Positions 3,619-47,618 of a stretch of 48,822 nucleotides of DNA are shown piece after piece. The stretch lies in sequence record MN153797.1. One strand, written 5' to 3'. This DNA comes from Tunavirus T1. The notes beneath the pieces were generated by a model. The model had not been told where the DNA came from, made no database searches, and saw nothing but the letters and a program-made list of their open reading frames with translations. The position numbers and the translations under genes are program-made. Within the stretch, counting starts at the first letter, position 1. Each line of letters begins with the position of its first letter.

Positions 3619-3993
3619 ATGAAATTCGAATGTATCAGCGATAACACCAAAAAATTTACTGTTGGCAAAATTTACGATGTTCCGACTGAGCACGCAGAGC
3701 AAACCGTAGCTCTGACCGACGACACGGGCCGCAACCGAATTGCAACCGTAACTCACAACGGTGAAGGTCTTCGCTGGAATAGCGGCGGCACTAAGTTCGC
3801 AACGTTCGACAAGAAGCGCAAGCGCACCTTCCGCGTCAACGGCAATGTTGCAGCTAACAAGATCCATAACGTCAAGCCGTCGGAAGTTGACCGCAAGCCA
3901 GCGCTGAAGTTTAAAGAGAAGGTGGATTTATTCAATCTTGCCGCCTCGCTTGTTCTCCTGGTCGCTGCTATTTCGCTGCTTTCCATCATGTAA
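3619..3993 (+). CDS. hypothetical protein with C-terminal transmembrane anchor
   Basis: Internal ATG of ORF 3577..3993 preceded by GGAGG; hydrophobic C-terminus LAASLVLLVAAISLLSIM. Confidence 0.5.
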   Translation: MKFECISDNTKKFTVGKIYDVPTEHAEQTVALTDDTGRNRIATVTHNGEGLRWNSGGTKFATFDKKRKRTFRVNGNVAANKIHNVKPSEVDRKPALKFKEKVDLFNLAASLVLLVAAISLLSIM

Positions 3994-4141
3994 TGCTAAT
4001 GGGGAATCGACTCTGAACGGTTCCCCTATCTTTTGGAGAAAACACTATGCCAGACTTTTCTAACTGGAATAACGAGCCGCCATCATTTCAGGAGTTGCTA
4101 TTCTGCCTCCTGGTCCTGACATTATCTCTTAAGGGTGTTTT

Positions 4142-4864: not shown

Positions 4865-4907
4865 TAGCACGAATTGCTAAAACTTGCTCAAGGGCATTTG
4901 TTAGAAT
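4865..4907 (+). promoter_or_regulatory. Box-dependent promoter: tagcacgaattgcta + TGt-TAGAAT (4902-4907)
   Basis: Centre to -10 = 30 bp; hairpin aagggcat..atgccctt. Confidence 0.55.
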
Positions 4908-4947: not shown

Positions 4948-5478
4948 ATGGATAAAATCACAATTTGGGGCCAGACAATCAACCTGTTTCTCGGCACGCG
5001 CCGAGTGGCAATCTTTGACTTTGACGGGACACTTAGCGATGGATCTGGTCGACTTCACCTGCTGCCAACAAAGGATTTGCACTTGACTGAAAGCTGGTCT
5101 GAGTTTAACCGAGCGGCAATATTTGATAACCCAATCCAGAGCACGATCGATGTGATGAACTCTATGTTTGCCGCTGGGTATCATGTGATCATTTTAACCG
5201 GGCGAAGTGATGAGGTGCGTTACGCATCTGAGTTATGGCTTAAGCATCACGGCGCTCGATATGATTACTTAGTCATGCGACCGCATACCGACAACCGCAA
5301 AGACACGGTAATGAAAGAAGAGGCAGTGCGCGCTATCGGCATTGATAACATTCTTGCGGCTTGGGATGACTCAGTGAATATAATAAAAAAATTCAGAGAT
5401 CTAGGGATAACCACATATCAGGTTTGTGAATATGCCTGTGATAGTCGAGAGGATTTAAATAGTCATGGTGTCGATTGA
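4948..5478 (+). CDS. HAD-superfamily phosphatase (possible 5'-nucleotidase / polynucleotide 3'-phosphatase)
   Basis: N-terminal motif IFDFDGTL (DxDGT signature of HAD phosphatases); RBS agaggaa. Confidence 0.6.
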   Translation: MDKITIWGQTINLFLGTRRVAIFDFDGTLSDGSGRLHLLPTKDLHLTESWSEFNRAAIFDNPIQSTIDVMNSMFAAGYHVIILTGRSDEVRYASELWLKHHGARYDYLVMRPHTDNRKDTVMKEEAVRAIGIDNILAAWDDSVNIIKKFRDLGITTYQVCEYACDSREDLNSHGVD

Positions 5479-5959
5479 TAACAAATCAATGGTAAGAGAG
5501 TTATTTACTTATTCTGACGGCGTTCTGTATTGGAAGGCCAAATCATCTAAATACAGTAGAACTAAAATAGGAGGCGCGGCAGGAAGCAAGGATAAAGACG
5601 GATACATAATAATCAGAGTAAGAAACGAAACTAGAGGCGCTCACAGGCTTGTATGGATATACCATAATGGCAAGATACCTGATGGAATGGAGGTAGACCA
5701 TATGGATGGAGACATAACAAACAATAGAATAGAAAACCTAAGATTGGTAACGAGAACCATAAATAACAGGAATCAAAAAAAGAGATCTGATAACACAACC
5801 GGAGTATCCGGTGTAACTTTCATGAAAGATAGAGGAAAGTATATGGCGCAAGTTAGAAACAAGAGACTCGGGCAGTTCGACACAATAGAAGAGGCCGCCA
5901 AAGCAGTAAAGGATGAGCGGGATAGATTAGGTTTATTCACAAAAAGACACGGGGTGTAA
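5465..5959 (+). CDS. HNH homing endonuclease
   Basis: Motifs HRLVWIYHNG..DHMDGD..NNRIENLRLV and GVSGV; start overlaps upstream stop; paralogous to 42014..42496 and 46071..46610. Confidence 0.7.
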   Translation: MVSIDNKSMVRELFTYSDGVLYWKAKSSKYSRTKIGGAAGSKDKDGYIIIRVRNETRGAHRLVWIYHNGKIPDGMEVDHMDGDITNNRIENLRLVTRTINNRNQKKRSDNTTGVSGVTFMKDRGKYMAQVRNKRLGQFDTIEEAAKAVKDERDRLGLFTKRHGV

Positions 5960-5961
5960 AC

Positions 5962-6534
5962 ATGAAAACAGCTATCATTTTAAACGGCGCACCTGGTGCG
6001 GGAAAGGACACTATCGGATGCATCCTGGCTGACACTTACGATCATGTAGCGCTACGCAGCTTCAAAGCGCCAATGTTTGAGATTGCCCGAGCAATCCTGG
6101 GTGAGACTAATTTCGAGTATTTCATGTTCTTGTATGAGGACCGTCGCTATAAAGAAGAGCCAGCGTCAATCCTGAACGGTAAAAGCCCGCGCCAGTTTAT
6201 GATCTGGATTAGCGAGGAGGTCATCAAGCCGCAGTTCGGAAATCGCTTCTTCGGTATGCGAGCGGAAAGTAAGGTGAAAGAGTCGCATTCACTTTCGGTA
6301 TTTACTGACGGTGGATTCAAAGACGAGATCTTGCAGATGATTGAAGGTGACATCCAGGTCAAGCTGTGTCGAATCCATCGCAACGGTTGCAACTTTGACA
6401 ACGACAGTCGCGACTATATCTATCTTGACGATATGATCGGGGTCAACGGTTATCAGGAGTGTGACTTCTTTTCTGTCGAAGGCCATCCAGAAATTACCGC
6501 TCAGCACATAGCCGCCACGTTCATCAATAAATAG
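5962..6534 (+). CDS. P-loop nucleotide kinase (dNMP kinase-like)
   Basis: Walker A GAPGAGKDT at N-terminus; size and layout fit small (d)NMP kinases. Confidence 0.55.
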   Translation: MKTAIILNGAPGAGKDTIGCILADTYDHVALRSFKAPMFEIARAILGETNFEYFMFLYEDRRYKEEPASILNGKSPRQFMIWISEEVIKPQFGNRFFGMRAESKVKESHSLSVFTDGGFKDEILQMIEGDIQVKLCRIHRNGCNFDNDSRDYIYLDDMIGVNGYQECDFFSVEGHPEITAQHIAATFINK

Positions 6535-6574
6535 CACGAATTGCTAAAACGTCGGTGTGGTGATTTGATATAGT
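6532..6574 (+). promoter_or_regulatory. Box-dependent promoter: tagcacgaattgcta + TGa-TATAGT (6569-6574)
   Basis: Centre to -10 = 30 bp; box TAG = stop of kinase gene. Confidence 0.55.
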
Positions 6575-19528: not shown

Positions 19529-19547
19529 GTATATAGGGGGGGGTTAT

Positions 19548-25043: not shown

Positions 25044-28000
25044 ATGATTCAAAAAGTGATAAGCGGATCTAAAGGTGGGTCACAGAAGCCTCATAACCCA
25101 GTTGAGATGGAGGACAATCTAATCTCAATCAACAAAATCAAGATCCTGTTAGCTGTATCTGATGGTGAAATTGACGAAACATTCAGCCTGAAGCAGTTGA
25201 TGTTTAACTCAGTCCCGGTGCAAAACGAGGATGGCTCATTTAACTTCGAGGGAGTAAAGGCAGAGTTCAGACCTGGGACGCAGACTCAGGAATATATCAA
25301 GGGAATGGAAGATAGCTCTAGTGAGGTAACTGTAAATCGTGAGGTTACTACCGATAACCCATACACAATCTCAGTAACCAACAAAACGCTGTCGGCAATC
25401 CGTATCAAAATGTTCATGCCTCGCGGCGTACGAATTGAAAGTAACGGTGATAAAAATGGCGTAAGAGTTGAGTATGAGGTGCAACAAGCTGTTGATGGCG
25501 GCTCGTTTGAGACGGTGCTCACCGATGTAATCGAAGGCAAAACAATGTCAGGTTACGATCGGAGCAGACGTGTAAACCTACCTAACTTCAACAATCAGGT
25601 GATATTCAGAGTGGTTCGGAAAACTCCAGACTCTAACGACTCGAACGTTGTTGACGCGATTCAGGTAAAGAGCTATGCCGAGGTGATTGATGCCAAATTC
25701 CGTTATCCGCTGACTGGTCTTCTTTTTGTCGAGTTTGATTCGAAGATGTTCCCAAACCAGTTACCTACGATCTCAATTCGTAAGCGCTGGAAGATTGTAA
25801 ACGTTCCGTCAAACTATGATCCAGAATCACGAACTTATAACGGAAATTGGGATGGAACTTTTAAGAAGGCATGGACGAATAATCCGGCCTGGGTGCTTTA
25901 TGACCTGATGATTAATCAGCGTTATGGCTTGGATCAGAAAGAGCTTGGTATCGCTGTAGATAAATGGGCGCTCTACGAGGCTGCGCAATATTGCGATCAG
26001 ATGGTTCCTGATGGGAAGGGCGGGACGGAACCTCGATACCTTTGCGACGTGATAATCCAGTCTCAGACTGACGCTTACAAGGTTATCCGAGATATTTGCT
26101 CAATCTTTCGTGGTATGAGCTTTTGGAATGGTGAGAGCATTTCGGTAATCATCGACAGGCCGCGTGAACCTGCGTACATCTTCACTAACGACAACGTTGT
26201 TAATGGTGACTTCTCCTACACGTTCGCAAGCGAAAAGAGCATGTACACGACGTGTAATGTGATGTTTGATGATGAACAAAACATGTATCAGCAGGACGTT
26301 GAGCCAGTATTCGATCGTGAGGCTACTCTACGGTTTGGGAACAACGTTACGAGCATTACAGCGATCGGTTGCACACGTCGAAGCGAGGCCAACCGACGCG
26401 GGAGATGGATTCTGAAAACTAACCTCCGCAGCACTACGGTAAACTTCGCTACCGGGCTTGAGGGCATGATCCCGACAATCGGAGATGTTGTGGCAATAGC
26501 TGATAACTTCTGGTCAAGTAACTTGACAATGAACCTGTCAGGGCGTTTGCTCGAAGTGTCTGGAAGTCAGATTTTCTTGCCGTTCCGGGTGGATGCACGC
26601 GCTGGTGACTTTATTATCGTAAATAAGCCAGATGGCAAGCCTGTGAAGCGCACAATCTCAAGTGTTAGTGCGGATGGTAAGACTATAGAGGTTAACATTG
26701 GCTTTGGCTTTCCTGTGAAGCCTAACACGGTATTCGCTATCGACCGCACCGACATTGCGTTACAGCAGTACGTCGTGACAAAAATCGATAAGGGCGATGA
26801 TGATGAGGAATTTACCTACAAAATAACGGCGGTGGAGTACGATCCTAACAAGTATGATGAGATTGATTACGGAGTTAACATCGACGACCGACCGACGAGC
26901 ATCGTTGAACCAGATCAGATCCCTAGACCGAAAAATGTGCAAGTATCCTCAGAGTCGAGAATCGTCCAGGGGATGAGCGTAGAAACGATGATTGTTAGCT
27001 GGGATAAAGTTCCGTACGCTGTTTTCTATGACGTCCAGTGGCGAAAGGATAACGGCAACTGGCAAAATGTACCGCAGACAGCAAACAAAGAGGTATACGT
27101 TGAAGGTATTTACGCTGGCAACTATCAGGTTCGCGTTCGCTCAGTCGCTGGTTCGGGCACGACTTCAGGCTGGTCAAATATCGTCGCGGCAACGTTGACG
27201 GGTAAACAGGGTGAACCGGGCCGACCGATTAACCTCACAGCTACGGATGATGTTGTTTTTGGTATCCGTACAAAATGGGGGTTCTCTGATGGTTCTGGAG
27301 ATACAGCCTATACAGAGTTGCAACAGTCACCGGATGGAACAGTGGATAACGCAAGTTTGCTTTCTTTGATTCCGTATCCGCAGCATGAGTATTATCACTC
27401 ACCAATGCCTGGAGGGAATATTGTTTGGTATCGGGTAAGGATGGTTGACAGGATCGGTAACGTGTCTCAGTGGACTGATTTTGTCAGAGGTATGGCATCA
27501 ACAAACGTTGACGATATCATTGGGGAGATTTCTGTTGATATCGAAAACTCACCTGGTTACGAGTGGCTTGTTGATAACGCAACAGACAACGCGGCGCAGA
27601 ACTCAGCTAACGCAGAGGCAGCAATAGAAAACGCGCTCGCCAATGACAAAGACGCGATCTACATGAAGAAGGAGAACGGAAAACGAAAAGCTGAGTACAC
27701 GAAATCACTGAAACTTATTGCTGATGAGACGCAGGCACGAGTGACGGCGATCGAGCAATTGAAGGCAAGTTTTGGCGATCAGATTAGCGCTAGCAACAGC
27801 GAGCTGCGTGAGGTTATCGCAACCGAGACTGAAGCACTATCGCGTGAGATTGACCAGCTTAAGGCTCAGATTGGTGACGATATTCAGGCAAGTCTGACTG
27901 ATATTCGGGAGGTTATCGCAACCGAGACTGAAGCACTATCGCGTGAGATTGACCAGCTTAAGGCTCAGATTGGTGACGATATTCAGGCAAGTCTGACTGA

Positions 28001-28562
28001 TATTCGGGAGGCTATCGCGAACGAGACTGAGGCTAGAACGCAAGCTGACTTAACACTTAGCGCGCGGCTTGGAAATAACGAGGCGGCACTTGCTCAAAAA
28101 CTAGACTCGTGGAGTAACGCGGATTCTACTGGTGCAATGTACGGTGTCAAGTTGGGTCTGAAATACAACGGCCAGGAATACAGTGCAGGCATGGCTATGT
28201 CTCTAGTTGGTTCCGGAGCTGCGGTTAAGGCGCAGATTTTGTTTGAGGCGTCACGATTTGCCATCATGACTGGAATGAATGGTCAGACTCAGTACCCCTT
28301 CGTTGTTGAGAATGGTCAGGTTATTTTAAGTAGCGCGATTATCAAGAACGGATTCATCACCAACGCAATGATTGGAAACTTCATCCAGTCGAATAACTAT
28401 GTATTTAACCAGTCCGGATGGAGGCTTGACAAGGGTGGAACATTCGAAAATTGCGGAAGTGACGGTGAGGGTGCAATGAAGCAAACTAATACCACAATAT
28501 CTGTTAGGGATGCGAGTGGTCGCCTGAGGGTTCAGATTGGCAGGTTGACTGGCTCATGGTAA
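25044..28562 (+). CDS. central tail fiber / host specificity protein (lambda J-like)
   Basis: 1172-aa ORF after M-L-K-I block; contains in-frame 99-bp tandem repeat. Confidence 0.8.
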   Translation: MIQKVISGSKGGSQKPHNPVEMEDNLISINKIKILLAVSDGEIDETFSLKQLMFNSVPVQNEDGSFNFEGVKAEFRPGTQTQEYIKGMEDSSSEVTVNREVTTDNPYTISVTNKTLSAIRIKMFMPRGVRIESNGDKNGVRVEYEVQQAVDGGSFETVLTDVIEGKTMSGYDRSRRVNLPNFNNQVIFRVVRKTPDSNDSNVVDAIQVKSYAEVIDAKFRYPLTGLLFVEFDSKMFPNQLPTISIRKRWKIVNVPSNYDPESRTYNGNWDGTFKKAWTNNPAWVLYDLMINQRYGLDQKELGIAVDKWALYEAAQYCDQMVPDGKGGTEPRYLCDVIIQSQTDAYKVIRDICSIFRGMSFWNGESISVIIDRPREPAYIFTNDNVVNGDFSYTFASEKSMYTTCNVMFDDEQNMYQQDVEPVFDREATLRFGNNVTSITAIGCTRRSEANRRGRWILKTNLRSTTVNFATGLEGMIPTIGDVVAIADNFWSSNLTMNLSGRLLEVSGSQIFLPFRVDARAGDFIIVNKPDGKPVKRTISSVSADGKTIEVNIGFGFPVKPNTVFAIDRTDIALQQYVVTKIDKGDDDEEFTYKITAVEYDPNKYDEIDYGVNIDDRPTSIVEPDQIPRPKNVQVSSESRIVQGMSVETMIVSWDKVPYAVFYDVQWRKDNGNWQNVPQTANKEVYVEGIYAGNYQVRVRSVAGSGTTSGWSNIVAATLTGKQGEPGRPINLTATDDVVFGIRTKWGFSDGSGDTAYTELQQSPDGTVDNASLLSLIPYPQHEYYHSPMPGGNIVWYRVRMVDRIGNVSQWTDFVRGMASTNVDDIIGEISVDIENSPGYEWLVDNATDNAAQNSANAEAAIENALANDKDAIYMKKENGKRKAEYTKSLKLIADETQARVTAIEQLKASFGDQISASNSELREVIATETEALSREIDQLKAQIGDDIQASLTDIREVIATETEALSREIDQLKAQIGDDIQASLTDIREAIANETEARTQADLTLSARLGNNEAALAQKLDSWSNADSTGAMYGVKLGLKYNGQEYSAGMAMSLVGSGAAVKAQILFEASRFAIMTGMNGQTQYPFVVENGQVILSSAIIKNGFITNAMIGNFIQSNNYVFNQSGWRLDKGGTFENCGSDGEGAMKQTNTTISVRDASGRLRVQIGRLTGSW
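27811..28008 (+). repeat. Perfect 99-bp tandem duplication (2 copies plus a diverged partial third) inside the J-like gene
   Basis: Unit aggttatcgcaaccgagactgaagcactatcgcgtgagattgaccagcttaaggctcagattggtgacgatattcaggcaagtctgactgatattcggg repeats at 27811 and 27910; encodes the same 33-aa segment twice. Confidence 0.85.
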
Positions 28563-32695: not shown

Positions 32696-34312
32696 CTACG
32701 TATTTTTTAAGCTTTCAACAAACTCTCCAGATACCATTCTTTCATGATTTCTTTTGCACTCTTCAACCTTCTTGTTGTAAATCGAGTCATTAGGCATCTC
32801 AACTCGAACGCTAACAAAAACATCACTCGGAATGTCAATAGGATCTCCGTCGCTATACCCATCCTTATGATTTCTTGCGAATGAAGGCGCGTTATCATGA
32901 GTTCTATGATAAGTCTTGATAACCAAAGACCCATCAGGGTTAACATCATAATCTACCCACAATATAGGCTGTCCGTTAATGTCTTTTGGTATCTCTATGC
33001 CACCATTAACACCACCCCACGCTAGATCAGAATTTAGTGATAAACACCCCCTTATCAAATACTCGCCAGTAGAAATCCTCTCAACTGTACAACCTTCGCT
33101 CTCGTCGTTTGTTCTATGGCTCCCGTTGCCAAAAATATCAACGATGGGCGAGGCTCTTTTTATAAATCCGTTAGAGTCAACGGTTGTATTGCCTGTATTC
33201 CATATAACCTGGGTAGATTGCCATTGCCCCGCTCCTGTCTGTTTTCTGAGCCTCACATCCTTATAGTGTGGAGAGGTCATTGATGCGTCTTCAATAACAA
33301 AACCGAAAGCACTACCATCTCCTTGACCGTTTCTATGACGAACAGATATAGCTGTGACCCATCCAACAGAATTAACATTGTAACTTGCAAGGCTGCTAGG
33401 CTGAGATGATAAGGCGTTAACATAATCTACCCAGCTTGATTTCTCGTTAGATGCCGGACTTGATACAACGTTACCGGAAGAACTTGCCTGAAACGGTATC
33501 CACGGAGAAAACTTTGCATTATTGCCGTTTTTCATCCTTATGTAAAAAGTGCCGCGACCCGCTCTTGCGTATTCGTTTTGAGAATTTCCAGATTCTGGGT
33601 CAGTACCCAAATAAGTAAAAGGCGTAAATCTCTGAATGCAAGCGCTTGCACCGTTAGCTCCATTAGGAAGAACCTCAAGCATACCTGCCGTAGCCTCAGG
33701 ATAGCCCCTACTAGCGGTAGCTAAAGCACTTGATGATTGCATATATATTCCAGGGCCATCACCTTCACCAGTTATTGAATCAAGATGTTTTTCCCCTAAG
33801 TTAGTTCTATCAAGTTTGTAAACCTTTAGGCTTGTCCTTGCCTGCTCCTCGGTAGTTCCACCAGTGCCACCAAAATTAACCCCTAGAGCCTTGTTTTCAC
33901 TTCCATCATGAGTCATGGCGCCCCAGTCGCCGCTATCCTTGACGATCAGCTTAAATCCGGTCCTATCGTCATTTGAATAGATTTCCGTTAAATCTCCGCG
34001 AGGTTGATTTAATCTATTTACTGCTAGATTTTTCTTTGATTGCTCCTTGTCAGCAAGGCCAGAAAGATTTCCGTCCTTAGTTAAAAGATTGTCAGCATTA
34101 ACGCTATTTGCTGCGTCCTGAGCTTCCTGAGCACTTACCGCTGCCGCGTCTTTAGCGCTAACCGCCGCATCGCGTGCTGCCTGGGCATCGTTTTTTGCTG
34201 AGGTTGCAGTTTGCGCCGCAGTCTGAGCATCATTAACATAGCCAGATAGATCGCCTTTAGCGTCATTAATTTCTTGAACGATATTGTTCAGTGTCCATAT
34301 CAAGATCGGCAA
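32696..34312 (-). CDS. tail fiber protein, C-terminal fragment (no ATG, no RBS; TTG is the first in-frame start)
   Basis: 538-aa ORF; N-terminus repeats the C-terminus of 34412..34867; Ala/Gln-rich coiled region then Gly/Ser/Asn-rich distal domain. Confidence 0.6.
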   Translation of the reverse strand: MPILIWTLNNIVQEINDAKGDLSGYVNDAQTAAQTATSAKNDAQAARDAAVSAKDAAAVSAQEAQDAANSVNADNLLTKDGNLSGLADKEQSKKNLAVNRLNQPRGDLTEIYSNDDRTGFKLIVKDSGDWGAMTHDGSENKALGVNFGGTGGTTEEQARTSLKVYKLDRTNLGEKHLDSITGEGDGPGIYMQSSSALATASRGYPEATAGMLEVLPNGANGASACIQRFTPFTYLGTDPESGNSQNEYARAGRGTFYIRMKNGNNAKFSPWIPFQASSSGNVVSSPASNEKSSWVDYVNALSSQPSSLASYNVNSVGWVTAISVRHRNGQGDGSAFGFVIEDASMTSPHYKDVRLRKQTGAGQWQSTQVIWNTGNTTVDSNGFIKRASPIVDIFGNGSHRTNDESEGCTVERISTGEYLIRGCLSLNSDLAWGGVNGGIEIPKDINGQPILWVDYDVNPDGSLVIKTYHRTHDNAPSFARNHKDGYSDGDPIDIPSDVFVSVRVEMPNDSIYNKKVEECKRNHERMVSGEFVESLKNT

Positions 34313-34330
34313 TAATATCCATGCCGATGC
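34197..34330. repeat. Direct repeat copy A (134 bp) of tail fiber coding sequence
   Basis: Matches 34418-34555 except three small indels (agt/tgag, gtg/gttg, cca/ccaa). Confidence 0.8.
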
Positions 34331-34355
34331 AGATTAGTGATAGCCTTGTCGGTTG

Positions 34356-34402
34356 CTGAATAAATAAAAAAAATAGGGGCCCCCCCCCCCTTTTTTATTC
34401 AG
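34356..34402. other. Palindromic element ctgaataaa-taaaaaaaa-tagggg-C11-ttt-tttattcag between the two repeat copies
   Basis: Inverted arms 34356-34364 and 34394-34402; homopolymers A8, G4, C11, T6 read directly. Confidence 0.8.
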
Positions 34403-34411
34403 ATAGACACG

Positions 34412-34867
34412 TCACGTGCTGAGGTTGCTGAGTTGCGCCGCAGTCTGAGCATCATTAACATAGCCAGATAGATCGCCTTTAGCGTCATTAATTTCTTGAA
34501 CGATATTGTTCAGGTTGTCCATATCAAGATCGGCAATAATATCCAATGCCGATGCGATCTCAGTCTCTTTGCTCTGGTAGTACCGAAGCGTCTCAGCGAC
34601 GTTTTGCGCAAGACCGTTAACGGTCAATGAATCGTTAAGCAAGATCACATACTTACCGTCAGCGGCAGTCTGACCATCCGTAGAGATAGCCTTTAGCTCT
34701 GTGTCGCTCACAATGTCGCTGATTACCGCCAGTTTAATTGGTTGCTCCAGGAATACGATAGTTGCACCGACTCGAATCAGAGCAAGCTGATCTTTCCATT
34801 TTGTATCGGTTCCGTGAACCGTACCGTCTGCATCCATTGATGCAGTACCGCGTCTATATAAAGCCAT
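34412..34867 (-). CDS. tail fiber protein, N-terminal fragment (151 aa) ending just after repeat copy B
   Basis: ATG 34867 with RBS aaggag; C-terminal ..LNNIVQEINDAKGDLSGYVNDAQTAAQ duplicated at start of 32696..34312. Confidence 0.55.
   Translation of the reverse strand: MALYRRGTASMDADGTVHGTDTKWKDQLALIRVGATIVFLEQPIKLAVISDIVSDTELKAISTDGQTAADGKYVILLNDSLTVNGLAQNVAETLRYYQSKETEIASALDIIADLDMDNLNNIVQEINDAKGDLSGYVNDAQTAAQLSNLST
34418..34555. repeat. Direct repeat copy B (138 bp) of tail fiber coding sequence
   Basis: See copy A. Confidence 0.8.
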
Positions 34868-40807: not shown

Positions 40808-41941
40808 ATGTCACAAGCTAAAATCACTACCGAGCAACTTATCGAAGAGCGCATGAGCGGCCTGACACTTCGCGAGATCGCGGAAAAGTACGGTATGCAC
40901 ATTCGCACTGTCGAGGCGCGTCACGCAAAACTTGCAAAAGAAGGCCACTTCCACGGCAACGAGCATGTTGCTAAGATGGTTCCGGAAGGCTTCATGGTAA
41001 AAGGCACGTCAACCATGATTGACGCGGAAGGTAACGAGAAGATTCGTTGGGTTAAGACATCAGTTGATAATGAGCGCCTTGAGGTTCTAATGGAAAAAGC
41101 GCGTGAAGCATTCTGTTCAGAGTTGCCTAAGGCTATTCCATCTGAATCACCTGACGTTAGTTTTGATGAAGACACGCTTGCGATGTATCCAGTTTTTGAT
41201 TTGCACATTGGTGCTCTTGCTCACAAACATGAGTGCGGCGAAAACTACGACACAGCGACAGCAGAGAAGGTTATGAATGGGTTCTTTGACTACGCTGTAG
41301 ATAAGGCGCCAAACTCAAAGAATGCCGTATTGGTATTGGGTGGCGATTTCCTACATTACGACTCTTTGGAGTCTAAGACTCCAGCGTCAGGCCATTACTT
41401 AGATTCTGACAGTCGTTACGCTAAGCTTGTTTATGTCGCAATCCGATCAGTACGACGCGCAGTCTCTCGAATGCTGGAGAAGCACCAAGTTATTGATATT
41501 AAAGCAATAAGTGGGAATCACGACGAATCAGGGATGGTTTGGTTGCGCGCTGCGCTTGCTGCATTTTATGAAGATGAGCCGCGCGTAAATGTTGATGTTA
41601 GCCCTGCCGCAATGATGATGACCAGCTTTGGTAAGACCCTTATTGGATACACTCACGGGCATCAAATGCGAAAAGCAGATACTCGACTAAGTGTTATGGC
41701 AACTGATTTTCGTAAGTTGTTTGGTCAAAGTGATTACGTTTACACGCATAGCGGTCACTGGCACAGTCAAAAGATTACAGAAACAAACTTGGGTATTGAT
41801 GAGGTTCATGGTCAGCTTGGAAGTCCTGACGCATACTCTGCCAATGGCGGTTGGAGGTCTCAGCGTCAAGCTGCTGTGATTGTCTATCACAAGGAATTTG
41901 GTGAGGTTGGACGATTCATTTGTCGACCTGAAATGTTCTAA
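40808..41941 (+). CDS. calcineurin-like metallophosphoesterase with N-terminal HTH-like segment
   Basis: Motifs LVLGGDFLHYD and ISGNHDESG; N-terminal LTLREIAEKYGMHIRTV. Confidence 0.55.
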   Translation: MSQAKITTEQLIEERMSGLTLREIAEKYGMHIRTVEARHAKLAKEGHFHGNEHVAKMVPEGFMVKGTSTMIDAEGNEKIRWVKTSVDNERLEVLMEKAREAFCSELPKAIPSESPDVSFDEDTLAMYPVFDLHIGALAHKHECGENYDTATAEKVMNGFFDYAVDKAPNSKNAVLVLGGDFLHYDSLESKTPASGHYLDSDSRYAKLVYVAIRSVRRAVSRMLEKHQVIDIKAISGNHDESGMVWLRAALAAFYEDEPRVNVDVSPAAMMMTSFGKTLIGYTHGHQMRKADTRLSVMATDFRKLFGQSDYVYTHSGHWHSQKITETNLGIDEVHGQLGSPDAYSANGGWRSQRQAAVIVYHKEFGEVGRFICRPEMF

Positions 41942-42013: not shown

Positions 42014-42496
42014 ATGAACTGGCACGAGCATTACGAATATAGGGATGGTGTTCTATATCACAAGGTAAAGCCATGCAGAAGGCATGATGTAAATATTGGG
42101 GATGTTGCTGGAAGGGTTGCCAAAAACGGCTATCACTATGTTGTTCACAAGAACAGGCCGTATAAGAGATCTCGAGTTATATGGGAGATGTTTAATGGTG
42201 AGATACCAGATGGTTTTGTTATAGATCATCTGAATCACAATGCCACCGATGATAGGATCGATAACCTTGAGTGTAAGCCAAGAAGAGAGAATATGGTTAA
42301 TGTTAAGTTAAGGATTGATAGCACGACCGGAGTAACTGGCGTATCAAGAAAGAGGGATAACAAGTGGAGGGCGTACATAACAATTATGGGTAAGCAGAAG
42401 TGCAAGAGCTTTGACACGTTTGAGGAAGCTTGCGCGCAGAGGATTGAATGGTCAGTAACTCATGATTTTCACCCAAATCACGGTGGAACATACTAA
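42014..42496 (+). CDS. HNH homing endonuclease
   Basis: GVLYHK..DHLNHNATDDRIDNL..GVTGVS motifs; paralog of 5465..5959. Confidence 0.7.
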   Translation: MNWHEHYEYRDGVLYHKVKPCRRHDVNIGDVAGRVAKNGYHYVVHKNRPYKRSRVIWEMFNGEIPDGFVIDHLNHNATDDRIDNLECKPRRENMVNVKLRIDSTTGVTGVSRKRDNKWRAYITIMGKQKCKSFDTFEEACAQRIEWSVTHDFHPNHGGTY

Positions 42497-44502: not shown

Positions 44503-46071
44503 TTAACCCATCAGTCGAGGATTGATGAAAACAATATCATCAATCCGGCAAGTGTAGTTCATCTCTTCGAGCGTGATCAGCAGGCTGTCGATTCGCTCAG
44601 CTACTTTTTGTTGACCGTTGAACGGCGTAACGTTACGGCACTTTGCAACAATGCTATGAATAGGTGCGCGACCTTTGTTCTTCTTTGCGATCTCAGTGAT
44701 AACATCAATCAGCTTACGAGATTCAGCCTCATCACCAGCATACCCGGCGGCGCTGGCAGACGACAGATAGGTTCTGGAAAGCTCATTGAAAATCATGATC
44801 GCTTCCTGCATTGTTTCAAGGTCAATCTCACGGTTGGAACGGTTCGGTGATTCACCCTCCCAGTTCTTGATTGTGTGAAGAACTGAAGCAATGCGCAAAG
44901 CGTGCTTATCGAACTTGCCGAGATGACCGCGTAGCATTGAGTGAGAGTATTTGCCCCCGGCTGCGAAATCCGGCTCCATAGCCTGGCGAGCAAGGTTTAA
45001 TTCACGCATAGCATTACGGCTTACAGAGAGAACAACGTTGTCCTCCTTCATAATGTTGTGCACAAGTCGATAATATTTACTCACCAATCCTCGATCGACT
45101 TCCTTATACAGTGCATCACCATTTTCATCGCAAAGAATACGAGTGCCTAAAAGAGGTTCCTCGCGAACCAATAGGAAACGCTCAGATACACCGATACCGC
45201 GCTGGCCTGCGTCCATGATACCCTTGATTGTTTCATCCTGCGCAATGACGCAGATCGAACCGACCGGGCAAAGAGATAAGTTATTGTCCTGATTTGAACG
45301 CGCAACCTCCATATGGTTTTTATCCCACGCCTTGAGGATAAGCTCGCTGTTTGATTTCTTATCAGAACCGCCATAAGTCAGGCCAAGCAATGTATTTATT
45401 GCCGTTGCCTCATCAGAGATTACGGAAAAGTGGCCTTGAACAGCAGCTACTTTCGCAAGACCTTCCGGTGTAGGATCTGATACCGCGAAAACAATATCAG
45501 CCATCTTCTTGATCTTCTCTTCCAGTTTTTCCTTGTCCTCGTACAGCGCCGCCGTCGTGTTACCCTTCGGATCGTTTTTGATTTCCTTCTCGATCTGACG
45601 TAGCTGACTGGTTAAACGGATACGTTCCTTTTTGCGCTCTTCATTCAGTCTCTGAATCTCTGCGCGCATAGGTGTAATCGCCGCTGAGTTAATCGCGGAT
45701 TTACCTGTTGATGGTGGCTGGCTAATCACCATATAAAGAGCGGTCGGTTGTTCTTCTCCGTGATATTGCACCCAAAACTTCCCTAGCATCGCGGCTGAGA
45801 TGCACCCAATGAAATGAGCGTACGCAGACGAAACAGGAAACTGTACAGACTCAGCTTTTGCTTTTGCATATTCGAATACCAGGTTATCGCCACCTAACGA
45901 AATCAGCGGGAACTTATCGTTTCCACTGTTGATATCGATCGGGTCTTGCCAAAACGAAACTGAATCCCCGTAGCTGTTTTCACGAATTGCGATCGCCACC
46001 GGATTAACTCCAGTGCTATTTGCGATCTCAATAATCTGTTGGTAATTCAGTTTTGGCTTAATATTAAACAT
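44503..46071 (-). CDS. P-loop ATPase, putative replication protein
   Basis: Walker A-like PPSTGKS; probable start MFNIKP with RBS aaggag, overlapping HNH stop (TGATG); ORF-track 5' extension covers the promoter. Confidence 0.5.
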   Translation of the reverse strand: MFNIKPKLNYQQIIEIANSTGVNPVAIAIRENSYGDSVSFWQDPIDINSGNDKFPLISLGGDNLVFEYAKAKAESVQFPVSSAYAHFIGCISAAMLGKFWVQYHGEEQPTALYMVISQPPSTGKSAINSAAITPMRAEIQRLNEERKKERIRLTSQLRQIEKEIKNDPKGNTTAALYEDKEKLEEKIKKMADIVFAVSDPTPEGLAKVAAVQGHFSVISDEATAINTLLGLTYGGSDKKSNSELILKAWDKNHMEVARSNQDNNLSLCPVGSICVIAQDETIKGIMDAGQRGIGVSERFLLVREEPLLGTRILCDENGDALYKEVDRGLVSKYYRLVHNIMKEDNVVLSVSRNAMRELNLARQAMEPDFAAGGKYSHSMLRGHLGKFDKHALRIASVLHTIKNWEGESPNRSNREIDLETMQEAIMIFNELSRTYLSSASAAGYAGDEAESRKLIDVITEIAKKNKGRAPIHSIVAKCRNVTPFNGQQKVAERIDSLLITLEEMNYTCRIDDIVFINPRLMG

Positions 46072-46610
46072 CACAATAAACTCCTTAGTTGACGGCGTGA
46101 ATGATACACCGTCAATGGTACACGCGTTTTGCAAAAAGTGCTATTCGATCCGTGATTCTCATGAAAACCGTATAGCCTTTCCGCTTCCTTACTTGCTTTA
46201 GCCGCTGCATCCAGCGTCATGAAGGTCCCTAAGTGTTTTGTCTTTTTATTTATGGTTATGTTTGCCGTGTATCTATTTGTTTTTTTATTCCAATACACTC
46301 CCATAACTCCTGTGTTTGATGACACTACTCCCTTGTTTCTTAGGTTGTCTTGCCTAGTTACTAGCCTGAGATTCTCAATTCTGTTATCGTCTCTTTCATG
46401 GTTTATGTGGTCTACATCCATTCCTTCTGGTATGTTTCCGTAGTGTATTTTCCATACTATTCGATGGGCGTATTCAAATACACCTCCTGGAAAACATATT
46501 GACCGATAACCTTTTTTATTAACAGTTCCGGCAAGTAGATTTCGTCTTCTTCCGATTCTCCACTCTTTCCAGTACAGTCTCCCGCTAACGTATTTCAGTT
46601 CATCTTTCAT
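46071..46610 (-). CDS. HNH homing endonuclease
   Basis: AHRIVWKIHYGNIPEGMDVDHINHERDDNRIENLRLV, GVMGVY; 3' end reads through promoter box 46129-46143. Confidence 0.7.
   Translation of the reverse strand: MKDELKYVSGRLYWKEWRIGRRRNLLAGTVNKKGYRSICFPGGVFEYAHRIVWKIHYGNIPEGMDVDHINHERDDNRIENLRLVTRQDNLRNKGVVSSNTGVMGVYWNKKTNRYTANITINKKTKHLGTFMTLDAAAKASKEAERLYGFHENHGSNSTFCKTRVPLTVYHSRRQLRSLL
46101..46143 (-). promoter_or_regulatory. Box-dependent promoter (minus): tagcactttttgcaa + TATCAT (46106-46101)
   Basis: Centre to -10 = 30 bp; lies inside the 3' end of the HNH ORF. Confidence 0.5.
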
Positions 46611-47574: not shown

Positions 47575-47618
47575 AATATACCTTACTCCCCGATGTGTGT
47601 CTTTAGCAATTTGTGCTA
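47575..47618 (-). promoter_or_regulatory. Box-dependent promoter (minus): tagcacaaattgcta + TATATT (47580-47575)
   Basis: Centre to -10 = 31 bp; hairpin gggagta..tactccc. Confidence 0.5.

Follow-up and report, generated by a model that had tools for sequence, protein, structure and literature searches.

Genes for a phosphatase, an HNH endonuclease and a nucleotide kinase lie side by side in coliphage T1, in a locus that has been known and annotated since 2004. GenBank AY216660 lists the same three CDS as 'polynucleotide kinase', 'HNH endonuclease' and 'deoxynucleotide kinase', the first on the basis of an HHpred match to T4 Pnk (5UJ0) and the third on that of an HHpred match to T4 DNK, and a map of T1 published in 2026 labels them PNK, HNH and dNMP kinase (PMC13164509). 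Phage TLS carries the same phosphatase and kinase pair as Gp09 and Gp14, and T1, like TLS, breaks down the chromosome of its host and recycles the nucleotides by means of enzymes not yet identified (PMC11447400). In other Drexlerviridae the pair directly follows a 'DNA repair exonuclease' gene, and HNH genes shift position among T1-like phages (PMC13164509). For T1 itself the trio therefore matters little, since the genes have been re-annotated with unchanged functions and mobile HNH genes in T1-like phages had already been noted; the strict linkage of phosphatase and kinase and the existence of fused proteins, described below, constitute a small new lead.

The DNA analysed, referred to as the window, is the 48,822 nt stretch of sequence record MN153797.1. 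A 2.8-kb segment around the locus was 99.9% identical to three GenBank records of Escherichia phage T1, and the window as a whole corresponds essentially to the genome of T1. Comparison of the whole window with MK213796, the T1 reference, revealed 60 substitutions outside a single strongly divergent block at approximately 34268-34490 in the tail-fibre region, together with a 1-nt indel at 19536. The window base was A or T at 51 of the 60 substitutions, and 32 were C>A or G>T. Two changes within the HNH gene, at 5561 and 5844, form part of this genome-wide scatter. A tandem repeat was also observed in the 1172-aa tail-fibre gene at 27807-28030, where a 125-bp stretch matches itself at an offset of approximately 100 bp with 96.8% identity.

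We judge it reasonably probable that the trio is an early unit in which a Pnkp-type phosphatase and a dNMP kinase form a module for nucleotide salvage, with a homing HNH endonuclease gene in the junction between them. Confidence in this explanation is high for the anatomy and about even for the substrates.

Gene layout and transcription unit

The three ORFs occupy positions 4948-5478 (176 aa), 5465-5959 (164 aa) and 5962-6534 (190 aa) of the plus strand. The first 14 nt of the HNH ORF are shared with the end of the phosphatase ORF. At the other side, the TAA stop codon of the HNH ORF lies 2 nt before the ATG of the kinase gene. A first-pass annotation of the window had described these positions, the overlap and the 2-nt gap correctly, and had further held that no promoter box lies between the genes.

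An 18-nt box, AGCACGAATTGCTAAAAC, was found in eight copies in the window against an expectation of 0.1, at 2832, 3537, 4346, 4866, 6533, 34890 and 39964 on the plus strand and at 47600-47617 on the minus strand. Nearly all copies stand directly after stop codons in early regions, and some are followed by a hairpin. Alignment of seven copies showed a conserved TATAGT-like hexamer after the box; a -10-like TATAGT or TATAAT follows each copy at a distance of approximately 22 nt, and the hexamer is often preceded by TG. The copy upstream of the three genes (4866-4883, plus strand) lies approximately 22 nt before a -10-like TAGAAT and presumably belongs to an early promoter of T1. The next copy (6533-6550, plus strand) overlaps the kinase stop codon and marks the start of the following transcription unit.

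No copy of AGCACGAATTGCTAAAAC lies inside the trio, which is flanked by the two copies just described. A scan for sigma-70 promoters inside the trio returned a single weak 9/12 match, located in the HNH gene and fewer than shuffled sequences give, and generic promoter and terminator scans of the same interval yielded nothing notable. The absence of an internal promoter box was thus borne out, and we infer that the trio is co-transcribed from the box at 4866. One early transcription unit between two box copies would then hold a conserved two-gene module and a selfish gene in its junction. The possibility that the box acts as a standard sigma-70 -35 element was considered and rejected, since the distance from its TTGCTA to the -10-like hexamer, approximately 22 nt, is not canonical sigma-70 spacing. 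Given this unusual spacing, the box resembles an early promoter or regulatory element specific to T1.

Phages Eco_BIFF and phiL possess an extra ORF of 67 codons between the promoter box and the phosphatase start (corresponding to 4944/4945 of the window; positions 1548-1751 in locus L003 and 1048-1251 in locus L004). This is a second variable site of the operon.

The phosphatase and kinase pair

The first gene (4948-5478, plus strand), labelled 'polynucleotide kinase' in GenBank, encodes a stand-alone Pnkp-type HAD phosphatase of 176 aa. The protein matched HAD_PNKP (PF25109) with E=7e-17 and 62 bits against a cutoff of 27.6, and it possesses a HAD domain of the Pnkp clade with the DxDxT nucleophile motif. 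The motifs D24-x-D26-G-T, T-G-R86, D115-N-R-K-D119 and D140-D141 are invariant across the family. Its closest solved relatives are T4 Pnkp and the Pnkp1 of the Pnkp1-Rnl-Hen1 complex, both RNA-repair enzymes. By sequence the protein is predicted to belong to the Pnkp phosphatase family and not to an ordinary nucleotidase family. No kinase domain was found on it, so that the GenBank label is a transfer error; the label has spread through hundreds of Drexlerviridae records and is wrong in one respect, the protein being a phosphatase only. In phiL, a TGA replaces the Gly codon of the DxDGT motif (FD*T; L003 approximately 1625-1640, window approximately 5020), which represents either a pseudogene or a sequencing error in the record. 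If the TGA is real, the phosphatase would be dispensable for growth in culture.

The third gene (5962-6534, plus strand) encodes a predicted gp1-like P-loop (deoxy)nucleoside monophosphate kinase of 190 aa with the Walker A motif GAPGAGKD; residues R77, E85, K89, D116, E122 and D148-S-R150 are invariant across its family. It matched the P-loop protein family phrog_139 with E=1e-46, and the first-pass assignment of the three products as a HAD phosphatase, an HNH protein and a P-loop kinase was upheld by the respective profiles. NCBIfam returned nothing for the kinase, Pfam nothing above threshold, and phmmer and a 30-sequence profile searched against the PDB gave generic P-loop matches only; its placement consequently rests on fold and PHROG evidence. 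The best fold match was the dNMP kinase gp1 of T4, and the Walker A motif ends in G-K-D as it does in gp1. In comparison with T4 Pnkp, hhalign aligned only 23 columns of the P-loop, and fold and profile comparison found no 5'-OH polynucleotide kinase domain of the Pnk type in the T1 kinase. A distant homolog, P0359, is encoded directly after genes for dCMP deaminase, a ThyX-like protein and ribonucleotide reductase. The gp1 alignment, the G-K-D Walker A motif and the neighbourhood of P0359 group the kinase with gp1-type nucleotide kinases and not with Pnk, and gene context suggests activity on dNMPs. Identity to gp1 is only 12% and profiles barely link the two proteins (hhalign probability 81%, E=1.2e-5, over the N-terminal 74 columns only; two collinear blocks of weak matches with a broader kinase profile), and the substrate could therefore differ.

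The flanking genes had been proposed at first pass to encode either a 5'-nucleotidase and a dNMP kinase or the two halves of a polynucleotide kinase-phosphatase. Neither proposal stands as worded: the phosphatase is of the Pnkp type, in keeping with the second, and the kinase is of the dNMP-kinase type, in keeping with the first. The comparison with T4 Pnk and dNMP kinases thus ties the phosphatase to Pnkp and separates the gp1-like kinase, of which only the P-loop aligns, from it.

Two structural relatives of the kinase in BFVD, A0A7S6HV70 (phage JEP1, 518 aa) and A0A6J5RPH7 (297 aa), carry further annotations, in one case a DOD-type (LAGLIDADG) homing endonuclease domain and in the other nucleoside 2-deoxyribosyltransferase. 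These annotations suggest that the kinase family may also host endonuclease insertions and other fusions related to nucleotide metabolism.

The kinase gene was located downstream of the phosphatase gene on the same strand in all 80 IMG/VR loci with phosphatase relatives (56-100% identity). The most frequent arrangement was an overlap of 4 nt (33 loci), which makes translational coupling of the two genes probable where it occurs; spacings of 111-189 nt were found in 13 loci and of 0.28-2.2 kb, filled with small ORFs, in 30. An HNH gene occupied the junction in four of the 80. Among loci found through kinase relatives, the phosphatase gene was upstream in 45 of 80, the more distant kinases occurring without it. 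No fusion of the two genes was present in the 80 phosphatase-relative loci, and the ORFs were likewise separate in the 80 kinase-relative loci.

Fused proteins were found further afield. A search of 1.84 billion representative proteins with the kinase profile yielded 5336 relatives, and among the best 150 of these, P0217 (403 aa) and P0231 (461 aa) consist of an N-terminal HAD_PNKP domain and a C-terminal kinase; a third, P0350 (413 aa), was recovered with P0217 as the query. The fused genes are ORFs in independent assemblies, P0217 being present on three contigs and P0350 on two, and their products share 40-47% identity with the T1 phosphatase, 42-48% with the T1 kinase and a common conserved linker motif. 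P0217, P0350 and P0231 are real phosphatase-kinase fusions from rare, uncultured relatives, in the same order as the T1 genes, and represent a new lead. An apparent fusion in SH6 was discounted, as the one-piece tblastn match of the fused protein corresponded to two genes in the same frame with four in-frame stops between them. In loci L087, L093 and L094, the gene immediately downstream of the fusion belongs to the 'DNA repair exonuclease' family phrog_704. The same family is represented in T1 by the ORF at 40808-41941 (377 aa, annotated as hypothetical), which matched phrog_704 with E=7e-155 and Metallophos below threshold.

The rare fusions in T1 gene order indicate that the two T1 proteins probably work together; functional coupling is very probable. 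The earlier view of the flanking genes as a functional pair is accordingly supported by synteny in 80 of 80 loci and by the fused relatives. Relatives of the two genes are separate at the locus itself, and fused only elsewhere, in P0217, P0350 and P0231. As fused relatives exist, a kinship with end-healing enzymes is not simply overturned in favour of nucleotide metabolism.

The job of the module is most likely nucleotide salvage or the processing of DNA ends during host-DNA recycling, as far as sequence comparison indicates. For salvage, the module would supply the synthesis of phage DNA with material from broken-down host DNA. Conversion of dNMPs to dNDPs would fall to the kinase, a broad dNMP kinase raising flux as in T4 and T5, and the phosphatase would clear 3'-phosphates from DNA ends or 3'-nucleotides and so render the breakdown products usable. 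The T1 annotation lists no DNA polymerase and no genes of dNTP synthesis. Against salvage, no part in the recycling of dNMPs is, to our knowledge, established for a 3'-phosphatase, and the closest characterised relatives of the phosphatase act on nucleic-acid ends in repair pathways. A phosphatase-then-kinase fusion beside a 'DNA repair exonuclease' fits the healing of DNA ends equally well. A module that is strictly linked, often coupled and occasionally fused offers a lead on how T1-like phages recycle host DNA into precursors.

Healing of DNA ends as the dedicated function is unlikely, although it is the main rival explanation. The pair would act as a non-canonical PNKP with mammalian-like order and a gp1-like kinase, converting breaks with 3'-phosphate and 5'-OH ends to 3'-OH and 5'-phosphate ends for recombination, replication or exonuclease entry. 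The true Pnkp type of the phosphatase and the phosphatase-then-kinase order of the fusions agree with such a role, as does the company that the genes keep: the fused genes lie directly upstream of phrog_704, the family of T1 ORF 40808-41941, and in other Drexlerviridae the pair directly follows that exonuclease gene (PMC13164509). The properties of the kinase, however, argue against it. By fold and by family it is matched best by dNMP kinases and not by 5'-OH polynucleotide kinases, its alignment to T4 Pnk is limited to the P-loop, and its distant homologs are found in dNTP-synthesis clusters. The alignment further suggests that the Pnk general base has no Asp counterpart in the T1 family, in which a conserved F-K occupies that place just behind strand 2. 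Similarly unlikely is the broader proposal that the pair and the fusions P0217, P0350 and P0231 constitute an unrecognised class of end-healing enzyme, in which a Pnkp-type 3'-phosphatase and a gp1-like 5'-OH kinase are combined in mammalian-PNKP order. If this were true, the class would work with the Mre11/SbcD-like 'DNA repair exonuclease', for example on damage inflicted on phage DNA by host or defence nucleases.

The first-pass annotation had also raised the repair of tRNAs cut by host anticodon nucleases, the role played by T4 Pnkp. The closest solved relatives of the phosphatase, T4 Pnkp and Pnkp1, are indeed RNA-repair enzymes and the fusions link the two proteins functionally, but this role is very unlikely given that the kinase is not of the Pnk type and that no ligase was found. 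The T1 annotation lists neither an RNA ligase nor a DNA ligase, and none was detected when ten T1 ORFs with lengths of 179-672 aa, the majority described merely as hypothetical proteins, were scanned with Pfam; nor was a ligase seen in the 8 kb to either side of the fused genes. The 377-aa ORF at 40808-41941, which is of fitting size for an RNA ligase, was rejected as a candidate on account of its phrog_704 and weak Metallophos exonuclease matches. The host ligase RtcB, moreover, joins 3'-phosphate to 5'-OH ends directly, so that end-healing would work against it.

The HNH gene and its cassette

The middle gene (5465-5959, plus strand) encodes a putative free-standing HNH homing endonuclease of 164 aa, composed of an HNH_3 nuclease and an AP2-like DNA-binding region. 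The protein matched HNH_3 (PF13392) with E=2e-22 and 78.9 bits (cutoff 24.8) over positions 2-46 of the 46 in the profile, as well as phrog_99 (E=4e-60) and, weakly, AP2. Three matches to the HNH protein are present in the T1 genome, the other two at other variable sites. These lie at 42014-42496 and 46071-46610 (minus strand); the latter was confirmed as HNH_3 plus AP2, and the former, annotated as 'putative endonuclease', is presumably the third HNH copy.

The HNH segment was covered in eight of 119 related phage records and is absent from approximately 93%, copies of greater than 90% identity being confined to T1, JMPW2 and Eco_BIFF. When T1, JMPW2, SH6 and phiL were aligned, homology to SH6 broke at 5373, within the phosphatase gene and 92 nt before the HNH ATG, and resumed at the ACATG of the kinase start. 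In phages that lack the HNH gene, the phosphatase gene ends in its native 35 codons and is followed by a hydrophobic ORF of 36 codons, MNLYEFIAAHPVLTVIILLIINHTIINVAKLFLGRY, which overlaps the phosphatase stop codon and ends 3 nt before the kinase ATG. The carrier allele comprises a low-GC cassette (5373-5959, plus strand) made up of an alternative set of the last 35 phosphatase codons and the HNH gene. The G+C content of this interval is 38.7%, against 48.5% and 47.6% for the flanking coding sequence, and the T1-type 3' end of the phosphatase gene occurs at an identity of at least 95% only in phages that carry the HNH gene.

A tract of 764 bp (5281-6044), centred on the HNH gene and bordered by diverged flanks, is nearly identical between T1 and JMPW2. 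It contains two mismatches, both specific to this window, in contrast to 30 in 130 positions at 5151-5280 and 10 in approximately 70 at 6045-6117. TH21, which belongs to a different genus, possesses an HNH gene of 65.6% identity at the same phosphatase/kinase junction, with the overlap geometry seen in T1 and a T1-type phosphatase C-terminus.

Taken together, the distribution, borders, GC content, linkage, transfer tract and TH21 copy point to a selfish, free-standing homing endonuclease gene that invaded the junction recently and whose flanks were co-converted. The near-identical tract could also stem from ordinary recombination. The suggestion that the HNH gene is a mobile insertion was in this respect well founded, whereas the conditional proposal that a mobile endonuclease had separated an end-healing enzyme was contradicted. 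No HNH-less relative is fused at the locus; the close ones all have two separate genes, which overlap by 4 nt or are set apart by a spacer of roughly 110 nt or by 0.6-2.2 kb of further small ORFs, and this indicates that the HNH gene invaded an intergenic junction and broke no fused gene.

The HNH gene would have arrived as a low-GC cassette with its own last 35 phosphatase codons, probably from a donor resembling TH21/Nouzillyvirus. The cassette would have replaced the 36-codon ORF with retention of the overlap and ribosome-binding geometry, leaving both neighbours expressed; a ribosome-binding site in the last phosphatase codons and a GGGG before the kinase ATG would keep the neighbours translated. 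Recent movement between T1, JMPW2 and Eco_BIFF may have occurred by cleavage-stimulated recombination. Its mapped cassette borders and co-conversion-like tract make the locus a clean natural case of a putative free-standing homing endonuclease.

A vB_SsoS_008-like locus (L037/L109; IMG/VR UViG 2974611450, 50,414 bp) has at 3780-4004 a patchwork spacer in which stretches of the small-ORF allele are interleaved with stretches of the HNH allele, and its kinase gene is frameshifted and spread over three frames. It was not retained as a decaying HNH remnant, as the interleaved alleles and frameshifted kinase could also be an artefact of assembly from a mixed population.

HNH proteins are needed for terminase function in some phages, and this one, whose gene is tightly packed and seemingly co-transcribed with its neighbours, might similarly be a domesticated phage function such as a packaging or replication nuclease. 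We regard this as scarcely credible in view of its absence from approximately 93% of close relatives sharing the locus, its mobile-cassette features (foreign GC content, a replaced flank and a nearly identical tract left by transfer), the two further HNH_3 paralogs at variable sites of T1 and the changing position of HNH genes among T1-like phages (PMC13164509).

Comparison with known systems

The HNH gene resembles T4 SegF, SegB and MobE, known for 'intronless homing', in being an intergenic endonuclease gene of variable presence among close relatives (PMC2790892, PMC2988022, PMC10448857), and, as in such systems, the carrier allele shows diverged flanking sequence and a tract in which the flanks were co-converted. 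It differs in combining HNH_3 with an AP2-like region, and its homing, with the target site and the cleavage step, is predicted from sequence comparison only.

The T1 phosphatase is alike to T4 Pnkp (pseT; PDB 1ltq/5uj0) and bacterial Pnkp1 (PDB 4xrp) in its Pnkp-clade HAD phosphatase domain. It differs from both in the lack of a kinase domain on the same chain, in a family-specific insertion of approximately 20 residues after motif I (RLHLLPTKDLHLTESWSEFN) and in the failure of the T1 annotation and the ten-ORF Pfam scan to reveal a ligase partner. The neighbouring kinase is of a different P-loop kinase family from that of T4 Pnkp, and the phosphatase-kinase order of T1 is the reverse of that in T4 Pnkp. 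Like mammalian PNKP, the rare fused relatives have the HAD phosphatase first and the P-loop kinase second, but they have no FHA domain and a gp1-like instead of a Pnk-like kinase; in T1 the two are separate proteins.

The T1 kinase shares the P-loop NMP-kinase fold of T4 gp1 (PDB 1dek) and T5-type Dnk, and the G-K-D Walker A motif of gp1. Besides its low identity to gp1, it has no counterpart of the gp1 insertion and, at 190 aa against 241 aa, is the shorter protein. In contrast to gp1 and Dnk, the T1-type kinase is always linked in Drexlerviridae to a Pnkp-type phosphatase, to which it is occasionally fused.
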